From NCBI GenBank assembly GCA_902544065.1, contig CACCAS010000001.1, forward strand, positions 151,088 through 215,087: a stretch of 64,000 bases of DNA, read 5' to 3'. The notes below the pieces were generated by a model. The model was not told the DNA's origin, did not search any database, and saw only the letters and a program-made list of their open reading frames with translations. Both the position numbers and the translations under genes were made by a program. Source of the stretch: an uncultured Pelagibacteraceae bacterium. GTDB lineage: Bacteria > Pseudomonadota > Alphaproteobacteria > Pelagibacterales > AG-422-B15. Below, piece by piece: positions 11,126-35,944 of this stretch. How positions within the stretch are numbered: position 1 is the first letter of the stretch; each line of letters starts with the position of its first letter.

Positions 11126-11890
11126 ATGTTTGTAATATTTATACTAATAGTAGGTTTAATAATTGGAAGTTTTGTGGCAAGTACGGTCGAGCGATTAGCT
11201 CATAATAAACCTTTTTTATCGCCCAGGTCGATGTGCCCTCATTGCGGGGAAATTATTAAGTTAAAAAATAATATACCGATAATTTCGTATTTTATTCAAA
11301 AAGCCAAAACTGTTTGTTGCCAAAAAAAAATATCATCTATTTATCCAATAATTGAAATAACTTCTGTATTTATATTTTTTATTAACTTTACCTTATTCAG
11401 TGGGCAATCACTATTAATCATCTCACTTTTAACCACTGTATTTTTGTTAATATTTTTTATCGATTTTTATTATTTTATCATTTTTGATAATATACTTTTT
11501 GTATTAATAATTATTTCAATATTCTCATTTCTTATGAACAATTTCAATCCATTTGAGACTGATATTTATTATTCATTCTTTGCTTCTGTGGGCGCAATAC
11601 TTATTTTTTATACAATTAATCGAATATTTTTTATCATAAGAAAAAAAAATGGACTTGGTATAGGTGATATTAAACTGATTGGCATTTTGGCTTTTTGGAC
11701 TGGTTTGAGTTATCTTCCATATTTAATAATCTTTTCATCATTGCTTGCTATACTACATGTCATAATGAATAAATACATTTTACAAAACTCAAATGACATT
11801 CTTTCGATACAATCTCCATATGGAAGTTACCTAGTTACTTCTTTTCTGAGTATGATTTATTTGAAGAATATCTTAGTAACTTTTGCTTAA
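11126..11890 (+). CDS. gspO: Prepilin (leader) peptidase, copy 1, divergent from the gsp operon
   Basis: 254 aa, polytopic, with the Cys motif CPHC...CC, the aspartyl protease motif GLGIGDIKLIG and an upstream Asp (FFIDFYYFIIFD). It is a paralogue of the ORF at 16589..17374. Confidence 0.85.
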   Translation: MFVIFILIVGLIIGSFVASTVERLAHNKPFLSPRSMCPHCGEIIKLKNNIPIISYFIQKAKTVCCQKKISSIYPIIEITSVFIFFINFTLFSGQSLLIISLLTTVFLLIFFIDFYYFIIFDNILFVLIIISIFSFLMNNFNPFETDIYYSFFASVGAILIFYTINRIFFIIRKKNGLGIGDIKLIGILAFWTGLSYLPYLIIFSSLLAILHVIMNKYILQNSNDILSIQSPYGSYLVTSFLSMIYLKNILVTFA

Positions 11891-11919
11891 AGGCGTAAAT
11901 AAAAATAAATGACACAAAG

Positions 11920-11975
11920 TGGTGCCCCCACACGGACTTGAAACGCGAACCTATTGATTACAAGTCAATTGCTCG
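11920..11975 (-). pseudogene. Degenerate 3' fragment of tRNA-Thr (about positions 22-76)
   Basis: Matches 12322..12376 of the intact tRNA-Thr with 2 mismatches in about 55 nt. One mismatch breaks the T-stem G53 pair and one lies in the anticodon loop. Similarity stops in the D-arm, so no 5' part is present. Confidence 0.8.
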
Positions 11976-12016
11976 GTATAATATTTAATAATTATCAAAA
12001 AAAAATGGAGTAATAA

Positions 12017-12289
12017 ATGTTTGTATCTTTTACCGATTGGGAATTTGACGGAAATGTTGAAAATGCAGTTGAAAATATGAAAGGTTTTTGGCCTGAGATG
12101 AAAAAGCATGGAGCAACTAATATGCGTGCAACAGTTACGGGAGAAAAGACACTCAGAACGATGACTATCTGGAGCAGCGAAGAACAAGTGAAAGCTAACA
12201 TCGATGAAATTAGAGCAGCGGCTGGTAAAGCTGTAGGCATGACCACAACAGGTGGCATGATGGGTACAGTCGCAGTTGAGCTTGATTGA
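12017..12289 (+). CDS. Small hypothetical protein (90 aa), possibly ferredoxin-fold ABM/Dabb-like
   Basis: Only plausible ORF between the tRNA-Thr fragment and the intact tRNA-Thr. It is noticeably more GC-rich than its surroundings. The pattern ...TMTIWSSEEQVKANIDE... resembles small monooxygenase-like domains, but this is tentative. The two antisense ORFs over it look spurious. Confidence 0.5.
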   Translation: MFVSFTDWEFDGNVENAVENMKGFWPEMKKHGATNMRATVTGEKTLRTMTIWSSEEQVKANIDEIRAAAGKAVGMTTTGGMMGTVAVELD

Positions 12290-12321
12290 TTTATTAATGA
12301 GAAGCAGTTTTTGTAATTGAG

Positions 12322-12397
12322 TGGTGCCCCCACACGGACTTGAACCGCGAACCTATTGATTACAAATCAATTGCTCTACCAATTGAGCTATAGGGGC
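12322..12397 (-). tRNA. tRNA-Thr (anticodon UGU)
   Basis: The reverse complement is GCCCCTATAGCTCAATTGGTAGAGCAATTGATTTGTAATCAATAGGTTCGCGGTTCAAGTCCGTGTGGGGGCACCA. It folds into a full cloverleaf of 76 nt with anticodon loop TTTGTAA and an encoded CCA. Confidence 0.92.
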
Positions 12398-12404
12398 AAT
12401 AAGG

Positions 12405-12464
12405 CTTTCAAGGGTTAGTAAAATCTGGGACACCACCGGGCCACCATCACTAGACTCTTGAAAG
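12405..12464. other. Imperfect 60-nt hairpin enclosing tandem GGGACACC / GGGCCACC motifs
   Basis: ctttcaagggttagt (12405-12419) pairs with actagactcttgaaag (12449-12464). The loop carries GGGACACC (12427-12434) and GGGCCACC (12438-12445) with 11-nt phasing. It lies between tRNA-Thr and the first pilin gene. Confidence 0.3.
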
Positions 12465-12601
12465 TGTGTTCATGCTTTATAAACTACGTATAAAATTATC
12501 ACAAACAAAACTTAAGTTATTGAAAAGTGTCATCTTTTAGACTATGAACCTTTTAAATATTGAAAAGCATAGAAATAGGCGACCCCAACATCAATTGCAC
12601 T

Positions 12602-13087
12602 ATGAATAATAAAGGTTTCACTCTCATTGAACTTCTCGTCGTCGTTGCGATTATTGGAGTATTGGCTGCAGTTGGAGTCCTGGCGTTCCAAGGTTTTATG
12701 GAAAGAGCAAAAATTAATAGCACAAAATCTCAACATAAAACTGTCGTAAACTACATGCGAACTGAATTCCAAAGATGTTCTCTAGGAGAGGATCTCTTGA
12801 CTTATAAAAAATGGCATTCTACTGGAAATGAATGGAATATTATTGAAACAAGTGTTCTGTGCAGTGCTGATGCAGATATCCATGCTCAAAGTATTGATGA
12901 TCACTTTGAAGCAGAAGGTTTCATGAACTCTTTTGGATATGGAAGAGCAGTTGAAAGAGTCAACGTTGATATAGATCCTACAAGCCCAGGCTTTACAAAT
13001 ATATTTTGTGTTAGTGATAAGCAATGTAAAATTAAGACACATATTCACGGTTATCGCTTCTGGACAGATATGGTGACAAAAGAGTAA
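12602..13087 (+). CDS. Type IV pilin paralogue P1 (array copy 1 of 8)
   Basis: Start moved to the ATG at 12602 (MNNKG|FTLIELLVVVAIIGVLAAVGVLAF); the ORF-track TTG at 12560 gives an implausible leader. It has a class III signal peptide with Glu5. Four Cys lie in the C-domain. The C-terminal half resembles P4 (DDHFEAEGF..AVER; ending VTKE). Confidence 0.85.
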   Translation: MNNKGFTLIELLVVVAIIGVLAAVGVLAFQGFMERAKINSTKSQHKTVVNYMRTEFQRCSLGEDLLTYKKWHSTGNEWNIIETSVLCSADADIHAQSIDDHFEAEGFMNSFGYGRAVERVNVDIDPTSPGFTNIFCVSDKQCKIKTHIHGYRFWTDMVTKE

Positions 13088-13097
13088 TATAAAATAT

Positions 13098-13586
13098 ATG
13101 GCTCAAAAAGGCTTTACCCTCATTGAACTTCTCGTCGTCGTTGCAATCATAGGAGTATTAGCGGCGGTTGGCGTAGTAGCTTTTAATGGATTTATAAATA
13201 CTACTAAGGTTAATGCGACGATTCAAAGTCACAATACTGTGGTTAAATTTATAAGAACAAGTTTAATGAAATGTAATATATCTGGAGAACTTATATTAAA
13301 GCAGAATCCTCGAACAGATACAGGCAACCTATGTGTTTATGTTTCAAATCCAAATCCTGGTGCATTGATCTCTGCTTTTTGGAATCACTTAACAGCTGGA
13401 GAATATTGTAATACATACGGGTTAACCCATAACTCTGGTACATGTCAAGAAGGAGTCGCTCAAGGTGGTGCAATAGGCGCTGGTAATTTAGGTGAGGTAA
13501 AAATGATTACAGTTGGAACTACAATTGTAGTAGATACTCACTACAAGCAGGGTGAAAATTTAAATGATGTTATCAGAATTGAATAA
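13098..13586 (+). CDS. Type IV pilin paralogue P2
   Basis: MAQKG|FTLIELLVVVAIIGVLAAVGVVAFNGF. The C-terminal domain is not alignable by eye to its neighbours. Confidence 0.85.
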   Translation: MAQKGFTLIELLVVVAIIGVLAAVGVVAFNGFINTTKVNATIQSHNTVVKFIRTSLMKCNISGELILKQNPRTDTGNLCVYVSNPNPGALISAFWNHLTAGEYCNTYGLTHNSGTCQEGVAQGGAIGAGNLGEVKMITVGTTIVVDTHYKQGENLNDVIRIE

Positions 13587-14070
13587 AGGCTTCACCCTCA
13601 TTGAACTTCTCGTCGTCGTTGCAATCATTGGAGTACTGGCGGCTGTTGGGGTAGTAGCCTTCAATGGATTCATTTCAAGTTCAAAAAATACAGCATGTCA
13701 GGCTGAACATAGCAACAGAAGCAAATCGGCTCAATTGAAAATTAGTGAAAATATGCTTAATGGACAAAATATCACATTTACAAATATTGACGGAAATAAC
13801 GACACGATAAATTTTAATAGCAATACTTGGATACTTGTTTCGGGTTTATCTTCATATTTAAAATCTGAATATAAGAACCCAAATGGACCACTAAACGGAG
13901 CATGGGATCACTCTACGTATTTTGTAGATATTAATCAAATACCCACATCATGTACAGCCACTCAAATTGGCTACTCCTTTATGACAGGCATAAATGACAC
14001 ACGAACAATAAAATTTGGAACTTGTTGTAAAGTTGATCAACCGGCAATAGAAGAAAAGTTTAAATGGTAA
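13564..14070 (+). CDS. Type IV pilin paralogue P3
   Basis: MMLSELNKG|FTLIELLVVVAIIGVLAAVGVVAFNGF. Its leader peptide is encoded inside the last 23 nt of P2 in another frame. Confidence 0.8.
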   Translation: MMLSELNKGFTLIELLVVVAIIGVLAAVGVVAFNGFISSSKNTACQAEHSNRSKSAQLKISENMLNGQNITFTNIDGNNDTINFNSNTWILVSGLSSYLKSEYKNPNGPLNGAWDHSTYFVDINQIPTSCTATQIGYSFMTGINDTRTIKFGTCCKVDQPAIEEKFKW

Positions 14071-14095
14071 ATCGATATGTTTTAATATTTATTCT

Positions 14096-14584
14096 ATGAC
14101 CCATAAAGGTTTCACTCTCATAGAACTTCTCGTTGTAGTTGCAATTATCGGAGTACTGGCAGCTGTTGGCGTAGTTGCATTTAATGGATTTATGAACTCT
14201 GCAAAAGAGAATAGTACAAAAGCTCAACATCAATCAGTTGTAAAGTTCATGCAAGTTCAATTTACAAGATGCTCGCTCGGCGAAACAGAATTATCATATA
14301 ATAAACCAAATTGGGATGGTTCTGCCTGGGGAGTGATTACGGTAAATGAATCTTGTCTGTCAACAGCGGACACACACGCCAAAAAATTTGACGATCATTT
14401 CGAAGCTGAAGGTTTTTTAAATCCATTCAATACAGAATCAAGAGCAGTTGAAAGAAAAGAAAATTACTTAGAGCCGTCAAGGGCAGGGGCCATATATATT
14501 TTTTGTCCAAATGATACTTCGTGTGAAATAAGAACAAAAATTAATAATAGCTTATGGCTGAAGGACACAGTATCAAAAGAATAA
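14096..14584 (+). CDS. Type IV pilin paralogue P4 (same subfamily as P1 and P9)
   Basis: MTHKG|FTLIELLVVVAIIGVLAAVGVVAFNGF. It shares RCSLGE..LSY, DDHFEAEGFLNPF and the C-terminal DTVSKE with P1 and P9. Confidence 0.85.
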   Translation: MTHKGFTLIELLVVVAIIGVLAAVGVVAFNGFMNSAKENSTKAQHQSVVKFMQVQFTRCSLGETELSYNKPNWDGSAWGVITVNESCLSTADTHAKKFDDHFEAEGFLNPFNTESRAVERKENYLEPSRAGAIYIFCPNDTSCEIRTKINNSLWLKDTVSKE

Positions 14585-14589
14585 ATAAT

Positions 14590-15066
14590 ATGCAAAAAGG
14601 CTTCACCCTAATTGAACTCCTCGTCGTGGTTGCAATCATCGGAATTCTGGCGGCAGTTGGGGTGGTCGCATTTCAGGGATTTATATCAAAATCTAAGCTT
14701 AATACATGTAATAGTAATTTTTCAACAGTATCAAAGTACGTTGGGACAACAATATTACAGTGTGAGACGCAAGGAGGCGTTTGGCCTTTTACAGAAACTA
14801 ATCAAGAAGCTTGTAATGTATGGCCCCCAGAAGTTCTAGCTACACAAATAGGTGCACATATTAATTATATGGGATTTAGAAACCCCTATGATGGAAGAGA
14901 GCTGGTTTTAAGTGGCTCAGATCCAAGCATAGGTGGTATATCAATTCATTCTCCGTCAATCACCTCTAAAGAAATTTATGTTACGAGTTGTTGCCAAGAC
15001 GATTGTTGGGGTGCACAAAATATATATACTGATAGAAGAATTTATACTTGTAATACATGTCCATAA
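14590..15066 (+). CDS. Type IV pilin paralogue P5 (Cys-rich C-domain)
   Basis: Start moved to the ATG at 14590 (MQKG|FTLIELLVVVAIIGILAAVGVVAFQGF). There are eight Cys in the variable domain. Confidence 0.85.
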   Translation: MQKGFTLIELLVVVAIIGILAAVGVVAFQGFISKSKLNTCNSNFSTVSKYVGTTILQCETQGGVWPFTETNQEACNVWPPEVLATQIGAHINYMGFRNPYDGRELVLSGSDPSIGGISIHSPSITSKEIYVTSCCQDDCWGAQNIYTDRRIYTCNTCP

Positions 15067-15542
15067 CCTCTTTGAATAATAAAGGCTTCACACTCATTGA
15101 ACTTCTCGTCGTCGTTGCGATTATAGGTGTACTTGCAGCAGTTGGAGTTCTTGCCTTCCAAGGTTTTTTAAAAAATTCAAAGGAAGTTTGTGCAAAGAGT
15201 AACCACAAGAATATGGTTAATTTTACTAGAGTCACACTAAATAATTGCTCAATAAACCCTACAATTACATTACTTGACAGAAATGGTGAAGATGTTGTCA
15301 GGGACTGTTCCCAACCTGGAAGTCAATGGGATGGTTACATGAGAGATCATTTTGTTGGTTCTGGATTTAGATCGTGTGATGGAAGTGACACAGCTATACC
15401 GATTGGCAGGGCCCATCATACCTATCCACCTGCAGGTCAAACATATTATTCTACAGACAACGTAGCTAACTGGCCTTTTTATATAACAACTTGTTTTGCA
15501 GAAGAAGATTGCAAAAGAGATATTGTTTATTGGACACCTTAA
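15057..15542 (+). CDS. Type IV pilin paralogue P6
   Basis: MSITSLNNKG|FTLIELLVVVAIIGVLAAVGVLAFQGF. The start overlaps the P5 stop by 10 nt. Confidence 0.8.
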   Translation: MSITSLNNKGFTLIELLVVVAIIGVLAAVGVLAFQGFLKNSKEVCAKSNHKNMVNFTRVTLNNCSINPTITLLDRNGEDVVRDCSQPGSQWDGYMRDHFVGSGFRSCDGSDTAIPIGRAHHTYPPAGQTYYSTDNVANWPFYITTCFAEEDCKRDIVYWTP

Positions 15543-15551
15543 TCATTTGAT

Positions 15552-16061
15552 ATGAAACAAAAAGGCTTCACACTCATTGAACTTCTCGTTGTCGTTGCGA
15601 TCATTGGAGTCCTAGCTGCTGTTGGTGTTGTTGCTTTTAATGGATTTATTAACAATGCAAAGATTAATACTGTTAAAGCAAATCATTCTTCAGTAGTTGA
15701 TTATATTCAATCAGAATTGTGGAAGTGTAACCTTGGATCAGAAACAGAAGCATATGAAAAACAACAGGCTAACCCATCAGTATATAGTGGTTATGGGTCG
15801 CCAAAATGCGACCGAGAATTTATAAATATTGCTGCTGGTATCATGTCTTATCTTCATAACTTTGATGAAAAGGGATATGATAATCCTTTTGGTGATACTT
15901 TAGATACAGGCATTAATATGCAAAGATCATGTCCTGACATAGTAAATATTGGTAGAATAAATATTGAATTAATGGCTAATAATAATGAGATTACAATTTG
16001 CTCTAGATGGGGAAGTGGTGAAAGTGAAATTACACAATCTTATATTAAAAATCCTTTTTAA
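15552..16061 (+). CDS. Type IV pilin paralogue P7 (subfamily with P8)
   Basis: MKQKG|FTLIELLVVVAIIGVLAAVGVVAFNGF. The C-terminus CSRWGSGESEITQSYIKNPF parallels P8. Confidence 0.85.
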   Translation: MKQKGFTLIELLVVVAIIGVLAAVGVVAFNGFINNAKINTVKANHSSVVDYIQSELWKCNLGSETEAYEKQQANPSVYSGYGSPKCDREFINIAAGIMSYLHNFDEKGYDNPFGDTLDTGINMQRSCPDIVNIGRINIELMANNNEITICSRWGSGESEITQSYIKNPF

Positions 16062-16070
16062 TAATTATTA

Positions 16071-16580
16071 ATGACTCAAAAAGGCTTCACACTCATTGAA
16101 CTCCTCGTCGTGGTTGCGATCATCGGAGTACTGGCTGCCGTTGGTGTTGTTGCATTTAATGGTTTTATTGGTAACGCTAAGGTAAATGTAGTTAAATCCA
16201 ATCTAGATTTGGCAATTAAACATGTGAGTACTCAGTTGATGAGATGTGAGTTTGGTACAAAAATACAATCATCCTCTGGAGGTGAAGCTTATGAAAGAAA
16301 TTGTGACAATGTTAGCTCGAACACGACTGATCGTTTTATCCAAAACTTTGGCTACACAATGCAAGTTTTAGAGGAGGACACTCAACAATACCCAAATCCA
16401 TTTAAGTCAGGCGATAGAGGATTTGCAATCAGTTCGGGTGTTCCACCAACTTCACAAATCGGACGAGTTCATTGTGGAGTTGATCAATCCATTAATTCAA
16501 ATTTAATCAATTGCCATGCTAGATGGGGAGAGGGTGAAAACGATTACGATACAAAAAGTATCTCCAATCCATATTTATAA
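16071..16580 (+). CDS. Type IV pilin paralogue P8 (subfamily with P7)
   Basis: MTQKG|FTLIELLVVVAIIGVLAAVGVVAFNGF. The C-terminus CHARWGEGENDYDTKSISNPYL parallels P7. Confidence 0.85.
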   Translation: MTQKGFTLIELLVVVAIIGVLAAVGVVAFNGFIGNAKVNVVKSNLDLAIKHVSTQLMRCEFGTKIQSSSGGEAYERNCDNVSSNTTDRFIQNFGYTMQVLEEDTQQYPNPFKSGDRGFAISSGVPPTSQIGRVHCGVDQSINSNLINCHARWGEGENDYDTKSISNPYL

Positions 16581-16588
16581 AATACATT

Positions 16589-25992: not shown

Positions 25993-26078
25993 TTATCATC
26001 TAATTTTACCATTGTAAGTACGACTAAAAAAATGTTTAATATTCGATACTTGTATCTGAAATTTAAAGACATTACTTA

Positions 26079-27848
26079 ATGGCTAAATCAAACTTTAATA
26101 CTGGTATAGGGGCAAAGATGAAAAATTTATTTAGCTCAGCTAATCTTAAATTAAGCTCCTCAAAAAAAAGTTCTTTCAGTTCAAATTCTTCTACCTCGTC
26201 TGGTATTGTAGCCAAATTATCAAATTCAATTATTTCAATGCTGAGCGAATACTCCGTTCAACAAGAAGAAGTAGTAGGTATCGACATTACACCAAACTCA
26301 ATAAAACTTGCTCAATTGGCAAAAAAAGATGAAAAGTGGATTGTAGAAAAGTTATCATATAGAAAGTTAGATAGAGTAGAAGATATAAAAAATAGCGCGG
26401 CTAAAATTTCTGAAGAAATAGAAATAGCCTACAAAGCGAGCAAGTTTTCAACATCAAATGCAGCGGTATCATTGCCAGTTTCTAGCTCAATAGTAAAAGT
26501 TATCACCATGCCTTTAATGACAGAAATTGAAATGAAAAAGGCTATAGAATACGACTCGTTGTGGGAAAATCTAACTCAACTTCCTGATGCTCTAGAGGAA
26601 TATTCAATATTTCACCAAACCATAAGAAAAGACAGTGCTCAGAACTTAATGGATGTATTATTCGTTGCATCTAAATTAACGGATGTAAACCAATACATAG
26701 ACATCGTTAAAAATGCAAAAATGATTCCAGTTGTTATGGATGTAAGATGTTTTGCATTAAGAAACGCATTTGAGACAAAAAATATGTCAGAAATGACAAA
26801 AGCTCCACTTGCGATTTTAGAGATGGGAATGTATGAAAATTATCTTTTAATTTTAAAAGATGAAGTACCCTTTGTAAGCGATATATTTGTCAGTGCAAAA
26901 GATAAGGAATTATTAGGATCTGAGCAAACTGATGATAGTCTCCAGCCGATTATAGATAGATTTACGATGCAAATTAAGCAAAATGTAGACTCTTATGTGT
27001 CAAGATTTAAGTCTGAAAAAATTGAAAACTTATTTCTGGTGTCAAATTCTCCAAGTGTTTATCAAATAGCGGATATTTTTACTAAGAAATTTAAAAACAT
27101 GACGGTGGTCGTACTTGATCCATTTAATGCGATGAGCGTTCCTGACCAAATAAGTGAAAAGCTTGTTGCTGAGTCAAACAATTCTTCATTTACTGCAGTT
27201 GTTGGGCTTGCAACAAGAAAACTAGATATATTTGGTTATTATCAAAAAGTAACCGGTGTCAATAATATTAATTTACTGCCTAATAGAGAAAATGTAAGGA
27301 AATCTCAACGAACAAAATTATTTTCAGGGTTTATTTTGGCATCGATTATTGGGATTTTGATTATTGTCTCGCTAGCTATTGGAATAAGTTTTTTTTCTAA
27401 ATCATCTGAAAACAGTCAAAACCTGATTAATTATTCTCAAATTGAAACGCAGCTAGATGGATTACAACTAAAAATGATGAAGTTAAAAAATGAAAATAAA
27501 AATATTATCGAGGGCTTAAGGCTATCTGAAACTGCGACAACTAATCAAGATACGGCAGCCAAAGTTCTTATTGAGCTTGCAGGGAATGCAGGCTTAAATA
27601 TTGCTTTAACTAAAATTTCATTCGATGGAAATATTACATACTTTATTGAAGGTGAGGCGCTATCTGATAGCGATGTAATAAATTATTTATCAAAAATCAG
27701 AGAAATAGATATCTTTGATTCAGTGATTTTGGAAAAATCATTTATTGCTGTAGAAGGCTCTAACATAAAGTCTTTTTTAATAAAGATAGAAGTTAAATAT
27801 GAATTTATGTCTCGTAAAAATTTAGAGAGCGCCATAGGAGGAGATTAA
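26079..27848 (+). CDS. PilM-PilN fusion protein (actin-like PilM domain + TM + PilN domain)
   Basis: 589 aa. The PilM-like part is VVGIDITPNSIKLAQL...VMDVRCFALRNAF. From nt 27267 the PilN signature INLLPNRE is followed by a TM (FSGFILASIIGILIIVSLAIGISFF) and a periplasmic domain. A Ser-rich N-terminal extension precedes PilM. Confidence 0.75.
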   Translation: MAKSNFNTGIGAKMKNLFSSANLKLSSSKKSSFSSNSSTSSGIVAKLSNSIISMLSEYSVQQEEVVGIDITPNSIKLAQLAKKDEKWIVEKLSYRKLDRVEDIKNSAAKISEEIEIAYKASKFSTSNAAVSLPVSSSIVKVITMPLMTEIEMKKAIEYDSLWENLTQLPDALEEYSIFHQTIRKDSAQNLMDVLFVASKLTDVNQYIDIVKNAKMIPVVMDVRCFALRNAFETKNMSEMTKAPLAILEMGMYENYLLILKDEVPFVSDIFVSAKDKELLGSEQTDDSLQPIIDRFTMQIKQNVDSYVSRFKSEKIENLFLVSNSPSVYQIADIFTKKFKNMTVVVLDPFNAMSVPDQISEKLVAESNNSSFTAVVGLATRKLDIFGYYQKVTGVNNINLLPNRENVRKSQRTKLFSGFILASIIGILIIVSLAIGISFFSKSSENSQNLINYSQIETQLDGLQLKMMKLKNENKNIIEGLRLSETATTNQDTAAKVLIELAGNAGLNIALTKISFDGNITYFIEGEALSDSDVINYLSKIREIDIFDSVILEKSFIAVEGSNIKSFLIKIEVKYEFMSRKNLESAIGGD

Positions 27849-27850
27849 TT

Positions 27851-28621
27851 ATGGCATCACTACTTGAAATGGATATTAAAGATCTCTTCTCTAGAAATAA
27901 AAAAGATGGATCTAATAAAAACCCTAATAAAAATAGCCCAATCGACCGAACGGTAATCAACAGAATTATAATTGGTCTTATTGCGATTTCTATAGTTGCT
28001 AGTTTTTATATTTTTTATATAAACCCATCTCTTAAAAAACAAGAAAAACAAATTTTGCAGGTTGAAAAGTGGAATAAGCAAATTCAAAGCTGTATAGTGG
28101 AGATTAAAAGCCTCAATCAAAGTATCGACGAGTTAAATAAAGAAAGTAATCTAAAAGGTGTTTTGTTTGTGAGTGATAACGAGTTTGAAAACTTTTATGC
28201 TGAATTGACTGAGGCTACCATCAGAAATGGGCTAAGAATTATTAATATAACCCGTGGTGATGAAATACCAGTAAGATTATCGGATGAAAACCAAACAAAT
28301 TCATCATATAATTATGAGCCTGCTAGCACCTCTATTCCTTGTGAAGAGGGTTCCAAATATGAGGGAATTTCCTCGAATTCAGAGAGTTTTCAGCCAGATC
28401 CAAATTGCCAAGGTGACGAATGTAAACCAATTGCTTATTACAAGATGACTGTATCATATGAAATTGAAGGTGGATTTTCAAATTATGTCAATTTCAGGAA
28501 TGTGTTAGCAAATAAATCTAAAATCGTTAACATAGAACAAGAAAGTATAACAAAGAGTGAGGGATCAGCTGGTCTAATTTCAGCCACAGCGACAGTTTCA
28601 CTTGTTAAAAATAGGGATTAA
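27851..28621 (+). CDS. pilO: PilO-like alignment-complex protein
   Basis: 256 aa with a TM (IIIGLIAISIVASFYIFYI), then a coiled coil and a C-terminal domain. It sits between pilMN and pilP. It carries an extra Cys-containing insert. Confidence 0.6.
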   Translation: MASLLEMDIKDLFSRNKKDGSNKNPNKNSPIDRTVINRIIIGLIAISIVASFYIFYINPSLKKQEKQILQVEKWNKQIQSCIVEIKSLNQSIDELNKESNLKGVLFVSDNEFENFYAELTEATIRNGLRIINITRGDEIPVRLSDENQTNSSYNYEPASTSIPCEEGSKYEGISSNSESFQPDPNCQGDECKPIAYYKMTVSYEIEGGFSNYVNFRNVLANKSKIVNIEQESITKSEGSAGLISATATVSLVKNRD

Positions 28622-28625
28622 ATTT

Positions 28626-29033
28626 GTGAAATATAAATTTCTTTTAATAATTTTCTATCTAATAATTTGCATAAATACCGCAAAAGCGGAGGACCCATTT
28701 TCGCGTAGCTTTTCTACTCCTTCAACATTATCGAACGATATAGCAACTTTGGATGACTCAGGGGACGGTATCCATCCGATGATGAAATATCCAATATCTA
28801 AATATTTTTTGAAAGGGGTTATAGTTTCCTTAGAGGGATCTATCGCAGTAATGAGTATACCCGGTGGAAAAGATTATATTATGTTTCCTGGCGATCCAAT
28901 AGGTAACGATTTACATATTATAAAAACTATAAATCAAGATTTTATTACAGCAGGAAAGAATTCTTCTGAGGAAGAATTAACAATAGCTGTTTCGAATCCT
29001 ATTCTATCAACTTCCATGTCTGGTTTGAATTAG
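28626..29033 (+). CDS. pilP: PilP-like periplasmic protein
   Basis: Start moved to the in-frame GTG at 28626, giving signal peptide MKYKFLLIIFYLIICINTAKA|EDPF. It has the PilP-type DPF motif and a beta-domain (AVMSIPGGKDYIMFPGDPIG). It is directly upstream of pilQ. Confidence 0.6.
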   Translation: MKYKFLLIIFYLIICINTAKAEDPFSRSFSTPSTLSNDIATLDDSGDGIHPMMKYPISKYFLKGVIVSLEGSIAVMSIPGGKDYIMFPGDPIGNDLHIIKTINQDFITAGKNSSEEELTIAVSNPILSTSMSGLN

Positions 29034-29034
29034 A

Positions 29035-30615
29035 ATGCTTAAAAGAATAGAAAAGATATTTGTTACTTCATTTCTACTTATTATTCTATCTGCCTGTGCG
29101 TCTTCTAATGACATGAAGAAGCCATTTGATCCAAAAGATTTTGCAGAAAAACAAGAGTCAATAATTAATGATACAGCAGAACTAGGCCCACAATTGGGTA
29201 ATAAATTTTCGTCTAGTGAAGATAGAAGAATATATATTGATGAGAATATGGTTACTGATTATACAAAAATCATTAGCAAAAATTTTGCTGAAACTTTCCC
29301 TATTTCAATTAATTTTGACAACGTTGATATTAGAAGTGTCATGCAAACATTTTCTATTATCACTGGTAAAAATATTTTAGTTGGAGATGAAGTGCAGGGT
29401 TTAGTAAAAGCAAGAATTCTTAATGAAGATTGGGATGATGTTCTTGAGGCAATTTTAGAAATGAAGAATATTGCACTAACCCTAAGTCCAAATACCAATA
29501 TTGTAAGGATTCATTCCAAAGAGGTGATTTCTGCACAAGAAGAATATAATCGAAAGCGAAAAGCAGAAGTCAGACAAGCAATGGAATTAAGTAAGTCTAT
29601 TCAGCCTGTTAGATCAGAAATATTCAAATTATTTTACAGTGAACCATCAACAGTTAAAACTCAAATTGAAGACGTTCTATCAAATATGGATGCAACAGCG
29701 TCAGCTGGAGAAGACTCTGCCGGAGGGAGCTCAGGAGCAAGTGATAGAGTTAAAATTACAGTCGACGAAAGGCTTAGAGCGCTTATTGTTCTTGGTGTTA
29801 GAGAAGATTTGGATTTTATTGAAAAGTTAGTAAACGAAATAGATATACCTACAAAACAAATTTTGATTGAGGCTTTTGTTGTCACTGTCACTGATAGTTT
29901 TGAAAAGAATCTCGGCACACGATTAGGAATGTACTACGGTCCAAATGAAACTAATATTGCAAGTGGAGGCTTACTTAGTGCAGGAGGTACTATTGGTGGA
30001 CCCCCAACTACTACAACTGGAGTAAATACTCTTGGTACTTTTGGTACGCAGTCTGTCGGAACTATGGCTGAAAATACAATATCTTCTGCAACAGGAAGTA
30101 TAGGAATGATTTTAGATGCTTCAAAAATAGACTTGAATCTTGAATTACAAGCAATGGAGGCGGATTCAATATCAAAAGTCATAGCTAATCCAAAGATTTT
30201 TACGCTAGATAATCAAACTGCTAAAATTACTCAAGGAGTGCAAATACCTTACACATCCGCATCATCAAGTGGGACGCAAACACAATTTAAGGACGCTGCA
30301 TTAACTCTTGAAGTGACACCAAGTATTATTGGTGATGGTAATATCATAATGGATATATCAGTAAACAATGACTCTGTTACAGACGCAACAGCTTCTAATC
30401 CTCCAATCAGTAAAACTGCTGTGAATACAAAGCTTTTAATTGCTAATGAATCCATTGTAATAATTGGAGGTATATTCCAGGAAACAAGTTCTGACTCAAC
30501 ATCCAAGACACCAGGTTTAGGCGACATACCAGTTTTTGGTAGTTTATTTAAGATGCAAGGAGATAAAGATTTGTTTAATAGGGTTTTCATCTTCATAGCA
30601 CCAAAAATTTTATAG
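29035..30615 (+). CDS. pilQ: Type IV pilus secretin PilQ (with lipobox)
   Basis: 526 aa. The N-terminus FLLIILSAC|ASS is a lipoprotein signal. The secretin core is present (ISKVIANPKIFTLDNQTAKITQG, LTLEVTPSIIGDGNIIMDI, TPGLGDIPVFGSLFK). Confidence 0.88.
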   Translation: MLKRIEKIFVTSFLLIILSACASSNDMKKPFDPKDFAEKQESIINDTAELGPQLGNKFSSSEDRRIYIDENMVTDYTKIISKNFAETFPISINFDNVDIRSVMQTFSIITGKNILVGDEVQGLVKARILNEDWDDVLEAILEMKNIALTLSPNTNIVRIHSKEVISAQEEYNRKRKAEVRQAMELSKSIQPVRSEIFKLFYSEPSTVKTQIEDVLSNMDATASAGEDSAGGSSGASDRVKITVDERLRALIVLGVREDLDFIEKLVNEIDIPTKQILIEAFVVTVTDSFEKNLGTRLGMYYGPNETNIASGGLLSAGGTIGGPPTTTTGVNTLGTFGTQSVGTMAENTISSATGSIGMILDASKIDLNLELQAMEADSISKVIANPKIFTLDNQTAKITQGVQIPYTSASSSGTQTQFKDAALTLEVTPSIIGDGNIIMDISVNNDSVTDATASNPPISKTAVNTKLLIANESIVIIGGIFQETSSDSTSKTPGLGDIPVFGSLFKMQGDKDLFNRVFIFIAPKIL

Positions 30616-30617
30616 TT

Positions 30618-32327
30618 ATGAGTAGGTTAATAAGCGATGAAAGTGCTAGTGAATTAGCAATAATGGCAGTGTCCAAAGGACTGCTAGCAGAAGAAAAATT
30701 CTCACAGATGAAGGTTTTAAATAGAGAGTCGGGCCAATCGATGGTTTCGATAATGTTTGAGAAAGGCGTTATGGATGAGTTTTCTCTTGCACGCTTTGTG
30801 GCAGATAGTTATGGACTTAATTTCAGAGAAGTAGATCCTGAGCAGGTTTCAGCTGAAGCTCAGGCAAAATTAAGTGAAGAATATTTAAGAATTAATAATG
30901 TATGTCCGTTTGAAACAGATGGCTCAAGTCTAAAGGTCGCAATATGTGATCACTCAAAATTATCTCTAGAAAAAAATATAAGAGTTATAACAGGAATGAA
31001 TGTTGAGATGGTACTAGTAACGGTTAGTAATTTTGAAAAACTCCTAACAAAATATGGAATATCCCCAACAACTCAGGAAGTTGGAGTTCTTGGAACTTTA
31101 AAAAAAGCTAAAGACACTGATGAAGGAGATGCTGAGGTCGAGCAAATAACAGAGAGAGATAAAACTGCAGCTGAAATTTTTGTTACAGATATTCTTACCG
31201 AAGCTTATAAAAAGGGTGCAAGTGATATACATATAGAGTCATTCAGAAAATCAAAAAGACTTAGATATAGAATTGACGGCATCTTAATAAATCAAAAAAG
31301 TCGACAAGAAGAGATTAACGATCGATATCTTGCAGTAGTTTCAATCTTAAAACTTTTATCAGGAGCCCGTATTGAGGAAAGAAGATTACCTCAAGATGGA
31401 GCAATTAATTTTAATAATGGAGATATTGAATTTGACTTAAGAGTATCATTTCTTCCCGTACAAGGATTGGCTGAAAGAGTTGTTATGAGAATTTTACGTA
31501 AAGATGCAATACAACTAGATCTTGAAACCCTGGGATTCTCAAAAGCAGATTATTCGAAAATTGATGAAGCGATTCATGCTACGCAAGGTTTAATATTAGT
31601 GACGGGGCCTACAGGAAGTGGAAAGACTACCACTCTTTACTCAGTGCTAAACGAGCTCAATGATGAGAAAAAAAATATAATGACGGCCGAGGATCCAATT
31701 GAGTATGAGCTAGAGGGAATAAGTCAATCGCAAATGAAAAATGATATTAATTTTACATTTGCCGCAGCTCTTAGAACATTTCTACGACAAGATCCAGAAA
31801 TAATTTTAGTAGGTGAAATCAGAGATAAAGAAACAGGCAATATTGCTGTTGAAGCGGCATTAACTGGTCATTTAGTTTTAAGCACTTTACACACAAATGA
31901 CTCAGTAAATACAGTAACAAGGCTTGTCAATATGGGCATACCAAACTATTTAGTTTCCTCTTCCGTATCACTTGTAATCGCCCAGAGGCTAGCAAGAAAA
32001 AATTGTGAAAGTTGTAAGACGAAGGACACGGATGTAAAAACTCATACTCTTGAGCAATTGGGCATTAAAGAGAAAATTACCGTATACAAAGGTAAAGGCT
32101 GTTCTAAATGTAATAACACAGGATTTAAGGGTCGACGCGGTATTTATGAAATACTAAAAATAACTCCTAAAATTCAAGATGCAATTCTTAAAAATAAAAC
32201 TGCTCCTGAAATTATGGAAATTGCTAAATCAGAGGGGTACAGGCCCATGCAAGAAGTAGGAGCTGACTACTTAAAGTCAGGTGATCTTGCTTTTGAAGAA
32301 TTCCAAAGAACATTATTTGTAGGATAA
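30618..32327 (+). CDS. pilB: Type IV pilus extension ATPase PilB
   Basis: 569 aa. Walker A LVTGPTGSGKTTTLYS, ILVGEIRDKETG, GHLVLSTLHTND, and the tetracysteine motif CESC...CSKC. Confidence 0.92.
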   Translation: MSRLISDESASELAIMAVSKGLLAEEKFSQMKVLNRESGQSMVSIMFEKGVMDEFSLARFVADSYGLNFREVDPEQVSAEAQAKLSEEYLRINNVCPFETDGSSLKVAICDHSKLSLEKNIRVITGMNVEMVLVTVSNFEKLLTKYGISPTTQEVGVLGTLKKAKDTDEGDAEVEQITERDKTAAEIFVTDILTEAYKKGASDIHIESFRKSKRLRYRIDGILINQKSRQEEINDRYLAVVSILKLLSGARIEERRLPQDGAINFNNGDIEFDLRVSFLPVQGLAERVVMRILRKDAIQLDLETLGFSKADYSKIDEAIHATQGLILVTGPTGSGKTTTLYSVLNELNDEKKNIMTAEDPIEYELEGISQSQMKNDINFTFAAALRTFLRQDPEIILVGEIRDKETGNIAVEAALTGHLVLSTLHTNDSVNTVTRLVNMGIPNYLVSSSVSLVIAQRLARKNCESCKTKDTDVKTHTLEQLGIKEKITVYKGKGCSKCNNTGFKGRRGIYEILKITPKIQDAILKNKTAPEIMEIAKSEGYRPMQEVGADYLKSGDLAFEEFQRTLFVG

Positions 32328-32329
32328 AA

Positions 32330-33580
32330 ATGCCATCTTTTGAATATAAAGGTATTTCTGGTGAAAAAAATACATATGCTGACGGCATAATAGAAGCAAT
32401 CAATGAAGATGAAGCTGCTTACCGTCTCAGGCAAAAAAAAATAATCATAACTGCAATAAAAGAAGTAAAATCTAATAAAAAAAAAGTTAAGGACAAAGAT
32501 AACAAGTCTTCTTCATTATCTTTTTTAGACAGATTGGGATCAATTAAAACTAAAGAGATAGTTTTATTTACAAAAAAACTCTCAACTATGTCTAGAGCTG
32601 GACTAAACATTTTAGACACTCTTCAAATGGCAAGAGATCAAGTGAATGATAAGAAGTTGAAAGTTATTATTGAAACGATAACTCAGGATTTACAAGGAGG
32701 TACAGATATATCAGGTAGCTTTAAAAAGCATCCAAAAGTTTTTGATAATATTTATGTAAACATGATTAAGGCAGGTGAAACCAGTGGAAAACTAGATATC
32801 TTTCTAGACAAATTAGTTGGTATTTTAGAGAAAAGGGAAAAAATTAAGTCAAAAATTAAAAGCGCATTGATGTATCCTGCAATTATATTGTCAGTAGCAA
32901 CACTTGTAACGATATTTATGATATGGAAAGTAGTGCCTGTTTTTGAGAATATGTATGGAGGCATGGGCGTAGAATTGCCTGGTCCAACTTTATTTTTGAT
33001 TGGTGCTAATAAATTTATAACTGGGTCAGGAGGCATCATAACTTTACTAATAATATTTATGATTGTTTTTCTAAACTCATTCATGATTTCACGAAATGAA
33101 AGTTACAAAAGTATGATGGATAAGGCTATATTAAAGATTCCATTGTTTGGCAAAATAATAATACAAGCCACCATTGCTCGTATTGCACTAATTAAAGCAA
33201 ATTTATTTGCTGCTGGAGTTGATGTATTGGAAATTTTAGATATTGCAAAATCCTCTACTGGAAATGTTCATTTCGTTAAAGCACTAGAGCATGTAAAACG
33301 AGGTGTATTTTCAGGAGAAGACATGTCTAAGCTTATAGAGAAAGAGATAATATTCCCTCCAACATATTCACAATTAATTGCAGTTGGCGAAAAAACTGGA
33401 AATTTAGAAGAAATGTTCTCATCTATAGCTTCTTATTATGAAGAAGAATTTGATAACGTTGTCGATAATCTGTCAACAATGATTGAACCACTTTCCATGG
33501 TGATTATAGGAGCAATTGTTGGAACGTTGTTAATTTCTATGTATATGCCTATATTTAATGCCGGCTCTGTTGTGGGATAA
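32330..33580 (+). CDS. pilC: Type IV pilus platform protein PilC
   Basis: 416 aa, GspF/PilC family, with two repeats (AGETSGKLD, VGEKTGNLEEM) and three TM regions. Confidence 0.9.
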   Translation: MPSFEYKGISGEKNTYADGIIEAINEDEAAYRLRQKKIIITAIKEVKSNKKKVKDKDNKSSSLSFLDRLGSIKTKEIVLFTKKLSTMSRAGLNILDTLQMARDQVNDKKLKVIIETITQDLQGGTDISGSFKKHPKVFDNIYVNMIKAGETSGKLDIFLDKLVGILEKREKIKSKIKSALMYPAIILSVATLVTIFMIWKVVPVFENMYGGMGVELPGPTLFLIGANKFITGSGGIITLLIIFMIVFLNSFMISRNESYKSMMDKAILKIPLFGKIIIQATIARIALIKANLFAAGVDVLEILDIAKSSTGNVHFVKALEHVKRGVFSGEDMSKLIEKEIIFPPTYSQLIAVGEKTGNLEEMFSSIASYYEEEFDNVVDNLSTMIEPLSMVIIGAIVGTLLISMYMPIFNAGSVVG

Positions 33581-33814
33581 TTAAAAAATAGATAGATAAA
33601 AATAGGCTGACCACATTATCATCATAACTGCTGATAAAATTATTATTAATAGACCAGTGAGTGATTCATTATTGTATTTTGGGTTCAATGAATTTTTATT
33701 TGAGTTAACCCTTTCCCTCCATTCTTTTGGAAAAAGATGAAGCGTTGATGAGTAGATTAACAAAAAAATTACAAGAAGACTTATAACAATGCATATATAT
33801 AAAAATTCCATCAT
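33581..33814 (-). CDS. Small two-TM membrane protein, convergent with pilC
   Basis: 77 aa with hydrophobic helices at both ends. It abuts the pilC stop with no spacer. No family recognised. Confidence 0.4.
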   Translation of the reverse strand: MMEFLYICIVISLLVIFLLIYSSTLHLFPKEWRERVNSNKNSLNPKYNNESLTGLLIIILSAVMMIMWSAYFYLSIF

Positions 33815-33966
33815 AAACGTTAAAAATTTTCAATTATCGTATCGGAATTATGGCTTAAAACCTACTTATTTCAATTTATTATGTAATAAAAATAATATTG
33901 TAAAAATATCACAACAACAATAACATAATCACTCAAATATCTTAAACTAATAAAGGGTAGTCGTTT

Positions 33967-34440
33967 ATGAGTAAAAATAAAAAGAACGGTTTTACACTAA
34001 TCGAGCTATTAGTTGTTGTAGCTATTATAGGTGTTTTAGCAGCAGTAGGTGTAGTAGCATTCGGTGGATTCTTAGGTAATGCAAAAGTAAATTCAACAAA
34101 ATCTAACCATAAAGCGGTTGTAAGTTACTTGCAGGCTGAGTTTACTAAATGTTCGTTAGGTGAAACTTCACTCACTTACGACACTGCTAGTGGCACTACA
34201 ACCGAAGCATGTAGCAGCGGTCCAGCAAACCACCAGGCTAAAATAGTTGTTCACTTAAATCAATCTAGTTTTAAGAATCCATATACTCAGGGTGATGGAA
34301 TAGAGTCTGGAACTGGAACTACCGAAGGCGCTACTTATATAAGTTGCGCCACATCTTCAGGAGCAGCTGGCACTTGTACAATAAAAACAACTTTCGATGC
34401 TGCGGAAACGGCTTTAACAGACACTGTTTCTAAAGAATAA
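33967..34440 (+). CDS. pilA: Type IV pilin P9, candidate major pilin
   Basis: MSKNKKNG|FTLIELLVVVAIIGVLAAVGVVAFGGF. The C-domain is Thr/Ser/Gly/Ala-rich and ends DTVSKE like P1 and P4. It is monocistronic in appearance, with a 152-nt AT-rich upstream region and a strong hairpin downstream. Codon choice is AT-rich, unlike P1-P8. Confidence 0.8.
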   Translation: MSKNKKNGFTLIELLVVVAIIGVLAAVGVVAFGGFLGNAKVNSTKSNHKAVVSYLQAEFTKCSLGETSLTYDTASGTTTEACSSGPANHQAKIVVHLNQSSFKNPYTQGDGIESGTGTTEGATYISCATSSGAAGTCTIKTTFDAAETALTDTVSKE

Positions 34441-34447
34441 TTAATTT

Positions 34448-34481
34448 AAACACCTTTCATAAATTTTATGAAAGGTGTTTT
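34448..34481 (+). terminator. Rho-independent-type terminator after P9
   Basis: aaacacctttcata / tatgaaaggtgttt forms a perfect stem of about 13-14 bp around an A/T loop. It runs into TTTT and begins 8 nt after the P9 stop. Confidence 0.7.
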
Positions 34482-34487
34482 ATCATT

Positions 34488-34922
34488 ATGAATATAGGTT
34501 TTTCTCTAATTGAACTTCTAGTAACTTTGGCAATACTTGGAATCATTGCAGCTATAGGTATTGTTTCTTTTTCTGGCTTCGTCGGTAATGCTAAAGAAAA
34601 ACAGGCAACGACAGGACTGAGCTCAATTTATTTAGCACAGGAAGAATACAGATCATTATATGGATCATATTATCAGTCGAGTTCAAATTGTGGAGCTTCA
34701 AATAATCATAGCAGCAATATTAATACTAATTTATTTTCTGGGGATAAGACACTTGATGAAACATCTGAACGTAACTTCAATTTTTGTATCGAATATTTAA
34801 ATGGATCTTCATCTTCATTTCAAGCTAATGCATACGATCTAAGCTCTAATAATTACTTCACAATTACAAATGCCAACTTAAAAAGAAAGTTTAAAGATAA
34901 TACTTGGTCAGATGGATGGTAG
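34488..34922 (+). CDS. Type IV pilin-like protein P10 (divergent, PilE/minor-pilin-like)
   Basis: It has a short leader MNIG|FSLIELLVTLAILGIIAAIGIVSF. The alpha-helix continuation KEKQATTGLSSIYLAQEEYRSLYGSYY differs from the P1-P9/P11 family. Confidence 0.75.
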   Translation: MNIGFSLIELLVTLAILGIIAAIGIVSFSGFVGNAKEKQATTGLSSIYLAQEEYRSLYGSYYQSSSNCGASNNHSSNINTNLFSGDKTLDETSERNFNFCIEYLNGSSSSFQANAYDLSSNNYFTITNANLKRKFKDNTWSDGW

Positions 34923-35415
34923 AAATAGAGGTTTTACTCTAATTGAACTTCTTGTTGTTGTAGCAATTATTGGAGTTTTGGCAGCTGTTGGTGCAGTTGC
35001 TTTTAATGGTTTTATGGAAAGTGCAAAGAAAAGAGCTACGATCGCTAATTTTATGAATGCTTCAAAGTTTATAGAAACAACTCTTTTAAGGTGTGATCTA
35101 GAAGGGGGTACTATAAAATTGTCTAATGATATCTCAATCAATTGTAATGTCACAAACAACACAACGAATGTAAATAATATTGCAGATTCATTTATGAATT
35201 ACTTTATTTCCTCTGGCTTTAAAAATCCTTATAACAGTAGTGATCCTGCCATAATAAGGACTGGTAGTGGAGGAGATACTGTAAATGGGCGTTTAAGACT
35301 AGACGAAACTGAATGTTCTTCGGGCAGCAGTAATAAAAAAATAGCCTTATGGTATAAAGTACATGATGAAGATCCAAGCCTAAAACTTTTTGAAATGTCA
35401 TCGTGGTGTAGTTAA
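34912..35415 (+). CDS. Type IV pilin paralogue P11
   Basis: MDGRNRG|FTLIELLVVVAIIGVLAAVGAVAFNGF. It shares the GFKNPY motif with the family. The start overlaps the P10 stop by 11 nt. Confidence 0.8.
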   Translation: MDGRNRGFTLIELLVVVAIIGVLAAVGAVAFNGFMESAKKRATIANFMNASKFIETTLLRCDLEGGTIKLSNDISINCNVTNNTTNVNNIADSFMNYFISSGFKNPYNSSDPAIIRTGSGGDTVNGRLRLDETECSSGSSNKKIALWYKVHDEDPSLKLFEMSSWCS

Positions 35416-35697
35416 ATTTAAAGAATAATCGTCAAATTCCATCCTACGCTCCATTTTGATAAAAAAATTAAAAATCAAACTATTCTGTCATTTTTTTACA
35501 ATTTTTTATTTGAACTTTTTTTGATAAAGTAAAGTATTGATAGAATTTATTTTCTTAAATTTTGATTTTGAAGTTAACCCTTAATTTGAGCCATTAAGCC
35601 AAAAAGATTAATTTTTTTTATTATCTCTTCAATTTAAACTTTTATTCTGGAGACTTTTTTTCTTAAGAAAATAAGTTAACATTTCATAATCTTTCTC

Positions 35698-35716
35698 GGG
35701 CCACCAATGGGCCACC
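35698..35716 (+). promoter_or_regulatory. Tandem GGGCCACC motifs, 11-nt phase (possible protein-binding site)
   Basis: GGGCCACC occurs at 35698-35705 and again at 35709-35716, in non-coding AT-rich DNA. The same arrangement occurs at 12427-12445 at the other end of the pilus region. Confidence 0.3.
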
Positions 35717-35837
35717 TGAACTATTGAATCACGTGCGCGGAATCCCGTCAATATGAATAGGTAAACTGCGGGAAAATAATTTAAAAGTGAGTCTTTTGAG
35801 TCACAGTGCGCGCTAATGAATCTGACGTGGAAATAAT

Positions 35838-35879
35838 TTACAAATCAATTGCTCTACCAATTGAGCTATAGGGGCAATA
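35838..35879 (-). pseudogene. Perfect 5' half of tRNA-Thr(UGU) (positions 1-38 plus 4 nt upstream)
   Basis: It is 42/42 identical to 12360..12401. Identity begins exactly at the 3' edge of the anticodon loop and extends through the tRNA 5' end. No 3' half follows. Confidence 0.85.
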
Positions 35880-35944
35880 TGCGACTGGAATATTTTTAAA
35901 TTATAAACTTTATTTGTCTATAAATATTTATACAATGCATTTAT

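Follow-up and report, generated by a model that had tools for sequence, protein, structure and literature searches.

How a complete type IVa pilus system came to lie between two pieces of one threonine tRNA gene is the question raised by a 64,000-nucleotide stretch of DNA (the window; contig CACCAS010000001.1 of assembly GCA_902544065.1, positions 151,088 to 215,087) from an uncultured bacterium of the Pelagibacteraceae (SAR11). In the window, some 23.5 kb of pilus genes are bounded at one end by an intact tRNA-Thr(UGU) gene and at the other by a displaced copy of that gene's 5' half. SAR11 is the most abundant heterotrophic bacterial group of the surface ocean (PMC12636525), and its mechanisms of gene exchange have been described as unknown (PMC7542561). 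The analysis reported here points, with a probability of about 0.8, to a family of satellite-like tyrosine integrases as the maker of the island's borders; elements of this family carry the same tRNA 5' half in their own attachment site (attP). The pilus island itself is best read as a non-autonomous cargo island flanked by attachment (att) sites.

A first-pass annotation of the window had described an intact tRNA-Thr, a 3' fragment and a perfect 5' half of the same gene, and ARAGORN, Rfam and a repeat search bear this out. The repeat search of the window returned a direct repeat of 57 nt with 96% identity (11918-11974 and 12320-12376) and a second of 42 nt with 100% identity (12360-12401 and 35838-35879), the latter spaced by 23,478 nt. 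There is one intact tRNA-Thr(UGU) in the window; pattern searches with the tRNA halves recovered exactly these copies and had 0 matches in shuffled sequence, and blastn-short found no further significant piece of this tRNA-Thr in the window. In the 3' fragment, one of the two mismatches falls within the T stem. The last base of the 5' copy is the last base of the anticodon loop (TTTGTAA), and the base that follows is A, not T as in the tRNA. The perfect 42-nt match and the breakpoint at the 3' edge of the loop stand as first described, whereas the four upstream nucleotides within that match are probably shared by chance, since there the bacterial sites (attB) of relatives do not agree with the attP of the elements. 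The displaced fragment has the same orientation as the intact gene, with the 5' fragment upstream, in keeping with the configuration rule of the Islander method for tRNA islands. The 5'-half junction recurs in TARA scaffold L120 (96% identity over 8.3 kb), and the junction of intact tRNA and pilin recurs in the single-cell genome contig L146 (88-98% identity); because both junctions recur in independent assemblies, the arrangement is real and not an assembly artefact. Rfam, run on the whole window and on the junction region, reported tRNAs only, and a known structured RNA in the GC-rich junction sequences was ruled out on that result.

Comparison with relatives shows what the locus looks like without the island. 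The window's rlmB retrieves single-cell and metagenome-assembled genomes of Pelagibacteraceae, and all 23 relatives that cover the region have an intact tRNA-Thr(UGU) of the same sequence next after rlmB, with only about 155 nt between the two genes in 22 of them. An empty site with gspO, tRNA-Thr and rlmB in adjacency, which the first-pass annotation had proposed to look for, exists in Pelagibacteraceae AG-337-G06 (L023), where the order is rlmB, tRNA-Thr, ORF90 (a short open reading frame), a degenerate 3' fragment, gspO and the type II secretion system (T2SS). The target site is thus uninterrupted in L023 and in 22 others. L023 and the window are homologous from the ribosomal region down to 35838 and again beginning at 12285; compared with L023, the window thus has an insertion of 23,478 bp. 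The spacer upstream of the displaced 5' half is the native rlmB-tRNA spacer, and the sequence upstream of the intact tRNA-Thr is foreign to it. An exact-protein look-up of the window's PilC and rlmB products gave no match on record.

A scan of metagenome contigs for the tRNA-Thr 5' half followed by a base unlike the tRNA's yielded four contigs (L120-L123). In L122, an integrated form, the rlmB spacer and the 5' half are followed by about 150 nt homologous to 35691-35837 and by the gene of a 418-aa integrase. L121 holds, contiguously, a P arm homologous to 12398-12601, the 5' half, a P' arm homologous to 35691-35837, and the same type of 418-aa integrase. L120 is 96% identical to window 27570-35873, and in L123 the P arm, 5' half and P' arm (the P-O-P' configuration) are joined to the end of pilin P3, with two DNA methylase genes in front. 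The 418-aa product is a tyrosine integrase with PF00589, PF13356 (Arm-DNA-bind_3) and SAM-like domains; its neighbours in the elements are an HTH_17/excisionase-like protein and a DUF5906 primase/helicase, and no capsid genes lie near the integrase in the element contigs examined. The elements are of about 8-10 kb, known from contigs of at most 9.7 kb, and phage-satellite-like: integrase, primase and regulators are combined in a small element in L121-L136, but not in the pilus island.

A search for homologues of the integrase gave 13 clusters on contigs of at most 9.7 kb, of which four subgroups were sampled (93%, 79%, 60% and 50% identical to the L121 integrase). In every sampled contig that covers the region upstream of the integrase gene, in all four subgroups, the order P arm, tRNA-Thr 5' half and P' arm is found. 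The 5' half measures 38-39 nt in these elements; it is perfectly conserved (100%) where integrase identity is 60% or more, and 92% identical where it is 50%; in every element the identity block stops exactly at the 3' edge of the anticodon loop (alignment A1). The element carrying a 5' portion, which the first-pass annotation could only postulate, thus exists as integrase-bearing elements whose attP consists of arm, 5' half and arm. In L121, L124, L126, L128 and L132 the attP core equals attB, the arms bear repeats and the integrase has an arm-binding domain, as in att sites of the lambda/P4 type. L124 ends in 90%-identical copies of the integrase gene and P' arm, which indicates tandem elements separated by a P-O-P' junction. 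The exact 5' half had 0 matches in IMG/VR viral contigs, as had the exact junction, and the element integrase is less than 27% identical to any integrase in the phage collection. In L121, a non-coding, GC-rich stretch of about 430 nt (3320-3750) was also observed between the P arm and the next gene.

Both ends of the pilus island consist of the arms of this attP. Identity to the L121 arms is 88% for window 12360-12601 (P arm, L121 3077-3320) and 93% for window 35691-35876 (P' arm, L121 2929-3115). In the satellites the integrase gene begins about 20 nt past the P' arm; the window's homology to L121 breaks off about 20 nt short of the integrase start at one end of the island, and at the other end it reaches as far as the first pilin's start codon. 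By this comparison the island ends are attL (B-O-P') and attR (P-O-B'). Each arm contains a tandem pair of 8-mers, one helical turn apart. In the 64-kb window GGGCCACC occurs three times, all within the arms, against 0.27 copies expected, and among the elements the 8-mer covaries between the two arms and with the integrase subgroup, being GGTGGCCC, GCTGGCCC or ACTGGCCC. From their position, their covariation with the integrase and the presence of an arm-binding domain, the repeats are read as putative arm-type integrase sites. The arm-repeat pattern also had 65 matches in viral contigs, all but five with at least 42% GC and none with the tRNA half; these were treated as chance.

The P arm contains, in addition, a sigma-70-like promoter site directed toward the tRNA, recognized by eye in alignment A1, with a -35 hexamer at 12504-12499 and a -10 hexamer at 12481-12476 on the minus strand. 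It is conserved in all elements (TTGTGA/TTGAAC/TTGACT, a spacing of 16-17 nt and TATAAA/TATAAG; A1 columns ~55-95) and faces the tRNA half and, in the attP form, the integrase. A sigma-70 consensus scan reported no minus-strand promoter in the P arm, its rule for the final base of a -10 hexamer having excluded this site. The native promoter-like site of the rlmB-tRNA spacer is now directed at the orphan 5' half, a position that in the satellites precedes the integrase. The features of the locus are collected in Table 1.

Table 1. Features of the tRNA-Thr locus and pilus island (window coordinates)
Feature	Position	Strand	Evidence or remarks
Displaced 3' fragment of tRNA-Thr, positions 22-76, 2 mismatches	11918-11974	-	repeat search, blastn-short
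ORF90, 90 aa, cargo of the cassette between the tRNA and its 3' fragment	12017-12289	+	
Intact tRNA-Thr(UGU), attR	12322-12397	-	ARAGORN; Rfam 73.2 bits
P arm	12398-12601	-	repeat pair 12427-12445 (GGTGGCCC-GGT-GGTGTCCC, minus strand); promoter-like site
Pilin array A, eight tandem prepilin paralogues	12603-16580	+	N_methyl motif; repeat families D1-D4
Prepilin peptidase PilD	16589-17374	+	PF06750, PF01478
PilY1-like protein (17371-21129), PilX-like protein, minor pilins	17371-24983	-	PF05567, PF14341, N_methyl
PilT-family retraction ATPase	24970-25992	-	TIGR01420 426.6 bits, above cut-off; PF00437
PilM/N fusion, PilO, PilP-like protein, PilQ secretin, PilB ATPase, PilC platform	26079-33580	+	Pfam
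Pilin array B, three prepilins	33967-35415	+	Pfam; repeat families
Non-coding spacer, array B to P' arm	35416-35690	.	conserved in pilus-island contigs L120, L123; not in satellites
P' arm	35691-35837	-	repeat pair 35698-35716 (GGTGGCCC-ATT-GGTGGCCC, minus strand)
Displaced 5' half of tRNA-Thr, positions 1-38 + 4 upstream nt, attL core	35838-35879	-	repeat search
Native upstream context: rlmB (36032-36805) and rlmB-tRNA spacer	35880-36805	-	promoter-like site 35920-35892

These comparisons suggest how integration would proceed. The attP is the mirror image of the usual tRNA-type site, with the first 38 nt of tRNA-Thr(UGU) held between two arms, and crossover would probably take place in the anticodon loop, because the identity block ends at the 3' edge of that loop in every element. 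Integration would leave the chromosomal 5' half adjoining rlmB as attL, and at attR the tRNA would be rebuilt from the element-borne 5' half (12360-12397), a promoter of the element and the chromosomal 3' half. Since the front half of the gene comes from the element, a promoter has to come from it as well. Read in tRNA orientation, the order in the window is rlmB, the 5' half with the P' arm, the pilus genes, the P arm with the rebuilt tRNA, ORF90 and the 3' fragment. A swap of promoters is hypothesized to accompany the event, in which a satellite promoter would take over tRNA-Thr(UGU) and the host tRNA promoter would end up before the satellite integrase.

The contents of the island are of one kind. 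Pfam and NCBIfam assign the region between the repeats to a complete type IVa pilus system and to nothing but type IV pilus genes: PilB, PilC, PilD, PilM/N/O, the PilQ secretin, PilT, PilY1, and minor and major pilins are all represented, the assignment of PilP resting on position only. The earlier claim that the interval holds no recombinase also stands, as neither Pfam scans of its open reading frames nor tblastn with the family integrase found a recombinase, integrase, excisionase or transposase, or a remnant of one, in the island. A 93%-identical pilus cluster sits at another locus, adjoining tRNA-Leu(UAG) and trigger factor (tig) and without arms (L027), and the cluster is therefore a flexible module; more distant copies have restriction-modification genes or an aminotransferase as neighbours. 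In L027 pilin P3 stands next to P4, whereas the window has them at the two ends of the island. Derivation of the island as a circular permutation of a chromosomal cluster, considered for that adjacency, proved unneeded and is kept as one route of capture. Pilin arrays occur on both sides of related clusters too (L028, L029, L146), and the limits of homology coincide with gene borders. Kinship between the L123 methylases and the restriction-modification genes of L026 was rejected, since they are only about 29-30% identical and belong to unrelated modules.

Neither GC content nor tetranucleotide usage sets the island apart: it has 33-37% GC and a tetranucleotide correlation of r = 0.84 to the ribosomal core. 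The first-pass annotation had proposed this comparison and would have taken such likeness as a refutation. The island is indeed indistinguishable from the core, but the result is not diagnostic, because exchange within SAR11, with which it agrees, would leave no compositional signal and a core-like composition is hence no refutation of mobility.

Other histories of the locus have to be weighed against integration by the satellite family. It is conceivable, if rather unlikely, that a satellite integrated at the tRNA and that its genes were later replaced in place by the pilus cluster, through illegitimate or pilin-mediated recombination, leaving an immobile fossil that never moved as an att-bounded unit. 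Such a replacement would fit the lack of any satellite-gene trace between the arms, the extension of the P arm to the first pilin's start codon, the spacer unrelated to satellites that follows the P' arm, the mutation of one arm repeat, and the near-identical cluster of L027, which lacks arms and has P3 and P4 side by side. However, two precise illegitimate joins would be needed, with every satellite gene lost and both arms left whole, and the occurrence of the junction between P' arm and pilin in two att configurations speaks for recombination at the site after capture.

The remaining alternatives dispense with the integrase altogether. High frequencies of recombination have been reported for SAR11 (PMC7542561) and the repeats are perfect; both would fit a RecA-dependent event with no site-specific recombinase, either a Campbell-type insertion of a circular DNA through the 38-42 nt of tRNA identity or a homologous replacement mediated by the flanks. 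Such an event is nevertheless highly improbable: both island ends are integrase-linked attP arms, the repeats covary with the integrase, identity stops at the edge of the anticodon loop in every element, and, unlike a replacement flexible genomic island, whose locus is filled in essentially all strains, this one holds only the short native spacer between rlmB and tRNA in 22 of 23 relatives. An ancient, fixed rearrangement, in which a second full tRNA-Thr, derived from a duplication or brought by an element, was partly deleted and its 5' half ends at the anticodon loop by chance, would account for the missing recombinase and the core-like composition. Since all integrase-bearing elements share the breakpoint, this account is already contradicted by the attP family, and with an empty site in existence and the adjacency of rlmB and tRNA kept in relatives, its chances are very slight. 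Finally, assemblers often break or mis-join at repeats, and L120 does end inside the repeat; still, a chimera formed at the repeated tRNA sequence has a negligible probability, as the attL side is found in a TARA metagenome (L120) and the attR side in a single-cell genome (L146), with related junctions in L122 and L123. The first-pass annotation had named such an artefact as a way in which its observation might fail, and in this respect the fragments have held up.

Integration by the satellite family is therefore the preferred account of the borders, and the question becomes whether the island is mobile. It is regarded as non-autonomous because both arms are present and none of the element's genes. 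It would be excised or integrated only by an integrase acting in trans or supplied from a tandem neighbour, or else it would be the fossil of such an event; the choice posed in the first-pass annotation, an immobilised island or a recombinase in trans, was in this sense correctly drawn, as no recombinase lies in the interval. The junction of P' arm, spacer and pilin P3 occurs in two att configurations, as attL in the window and L120 and as P-O-P' in L123, which implies that the site recombined after the pilus genes were linked to it. The tandem elements indicated by L124 are a further point in favour of such activity. The island is thus possibly mobilisable in trans, although that it is so mobilised at the present day is judged doubtful. 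The fuller proposal is more tentative yet: that a satellite integrase and excisionase would move the 23.5-kb pilus machine in trans and spread pili through SAR11, with the promoter swap at attP. Candidate routes of capture are accretion in a tandem array with subsequent loss of the satellite, replacement of the genes of a resident satellite, and formation of a circle by recombination between pilin arrays.

Several observations weigh against this account as a whole. No integrase of the family is encoded in the 64-kb window, and among the contigs retrieved neither an excised circle of the pilus island nor an empty site in a close strain was found. The contigs with contiguous P-O-P' could represent tandem junctions and not free attP, and the ends of L124 are 90%, not 100%, identical. 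One of the four island arm repeats is mutated (GGTGTCCC), in the window and in L146; as L146 shares the mutation, the att site may be decaying. Gain or loss of the island is not datable, because the sole relative with the empty site, L023, is about 84% identical in the flanks and not a sister strain.

The 3' fragment, in contrast to the 5' half, does not belong to the island. The first-pass annotation had counted it among the pieces that bracket the pilus region; the unit of tRNA, ORF90 and 3' fragment is found also in island-free relatives, including L023, and forms a separate cassette. In ten relatives ORF90 has 92-100% identity, against only 67-82% for rlmB of the same genomes, and its product has no match in Pfam, PHROG or NCBIfam. 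Eleven IMG/VR viral contigs carry the 3' part of this tRNA-Thr, eight of them positions 24/29-76 only, and in the viral contigs examined a tyrosine integrase and a T7-like RNA polymerase flank the segment. An attP flanked in this manner is the layout given for HTVC019P-type pelagiphages (10.1101/410191). The 3' fragment with ORF90 is accordingly read, from these arrangements, as an independent and older scar of ordinary 3'-type integration, and the earlier view that the 3' fragment itself fits the usual model agrees with the marine phage contigs. The likeness to the HTVC019P type, whose attP matches the 3' part of a SAR11 tRNA, concerns the 3' fragment only; the text of that paper does not mention tRNA-Thr (10.1101/410191), and the phage contigs with the tRNA-Thr segment have about 38-41% GC, SAR11 being only their putative host.

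The island has several partial counterparts among known systems. CIMEs, or cis-mobilisable elements, are att-flanked islands without recombination genes that lie next to integrative and conjugative elements of streptococci. The pilus island resembles them in having no recombination or transfer genes between its att sites, no int or xis of its own, and a functional-looking attL and attR of an integrase family, as well as in the tandem accretion seen in related contigs L123 and L124; it differs in that the partner is a small satellite-like element and not a conjugative one. Williams is said to have defined, in 2002, an anticodon-loop class of tRNA att sites, and this crossover class would be mirrored here. 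Integration at the 5' end of a gene also has a precedent, since in dusA islands the element restores the 5' end of the target gene. The dusA-specific integrases are likened to the present ones by site, and not by integrase family, and their target is a protein-coding gene instead of a tRNA (PMC4482086).

With tRNA islands of the Islander type and P4-like integrases, the elements share an Arm-DNA-bind_3 integrase, a tRNA piece in an attP with repeat-bearing arms and, after integration, an intact tRNA with a displaced fragment that points the same way. A 5' fragment located upstream of the tRNA gene is expressly allowed by the Islander filter (PMC4383910). The differences are that here the element carries the 5' half (1-38), and hence must supply a promoter, and that the pilus island has no integrase inside it and so fails the Islander integrase filter. 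The tycheposons and tRNA-proximal islands of Prochlorococcus (10.1101/2020.12.28.424599) are similar in their streamlined marine host, in cargo islands that abut a tRNA with partial tRNA repeats, in tandem elements split by partial tRNAs, and in relatives that resemble phage-inducible chromosomal islands (PICI-like) and have an integrase and a primase. They differ in host and integrase, and the pilus island is set apart by its position on the 5' side of the tRNA and by a cargo of a whole pilus without a recombinase. Tyrosine-recombinase elements near tRNAs have been reported in Pelagibacter itself (PMC11876622). L121-L136 further resemble the VEIME satellites of Pelagibacter (PMC9618062) in the tyrosine integrase, replication genes, lack of capsid genes and host; an exact copy of the 5' half does not occur in IMG/VR viral contigs. 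The main text of the VEIME paper does not contain the word tRNA (PMC9618062). The parts are therefore of known kinds, namely tRNA-targeting integrases, tRNA-fragment islands, 5'-end integration, CIMEs and Pelagibacter satellites. A description of a mirror-image attP with the tRNA-Thr 5' half, of covarying arm repeats or of an att-framed SAR11 pilus machine was not found in the searchable literature, in which the prime sign cannot be searched.

Type IV pili serve elsewhere in DNA uptake and adhesion and as phage receptors. At this locus a whole surface machine is framed by a site-specific system defined in its sequence, comprising attB, an attP with arm repeats, an integrase family and an empty site. 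It offers a clear natural case of the rare integration by a tRNA 5' half, in which the element must replace both the promoter and the front half of the tRNA, and all of its parts are short enough for a recombination assay on plasmids.

A number of minor observations concern the pilus genes and the surroundings of the tRNA. The eleven prepilin paralogues in the two arrays vary in cassette number and order among clusters whose core pilus genes are 93-98% identical (window 12603-16580 and 33967-35415, compared with L026, L027, L028, L030 and L146), a pattern that indicates rapid shuffling of pilin cassettes. The window encodes two prepilin peptidases, one with the T2SS (11126-11890) and one in the island; the latter has one relative at 98% identity, the next being at most 60% identical, and is about 40% identical to prepilin peptidases of cultured Pelagibacter. 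An identical ORF90 protein is listed in 262 collection blocks, at no fewer than three unrelated SAR11 loci. The conserved ORF90 block (at least 95% nucleotide identity; window 11975-12321, and around 5930-6330 in L137, L138, L140, L143 and L145) has its start, about 40 nt ahead of the ATG, within the anticodon arm of tRNA-Thr copied in antisense, and at other loci it terminates past a GC-rich hairpin. ORF90 behaves as a tiny mobile cassette.

The flank beyond the 3' fragment varies as well. It is the T2SS flank, and not the pilus island, that is the compositional outlier of the window (28-29% GC, r about 0.72), and of the relatives fetched, L023/L141 and L146 alone have the T2SS cluster with gspO (1406-11890) at this position, which makes the cluster a probable second flexible island, situated 3' of the tRNA-Thr. 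L146 (260-4345) has its T2SS genes in the opposite orientation to those of the window and broken off within gspF. The break lies about 155 nt from the 3' tRNA fragment, and this fragment may therefore mark the breakpoint of a rearrangement. In L139 and L144 (6382-8700) rlmB is separated from the intact tRNA-Thr by an insert of 2.2 kb, accompanied by neither a tRNA duplication nor a P arm. The insert codes for a 312-aa protein with an inverse-autotransporter beta-domain and for a second protein of 355 aa, and is a third kind of variation at the tRNA-Thr site.

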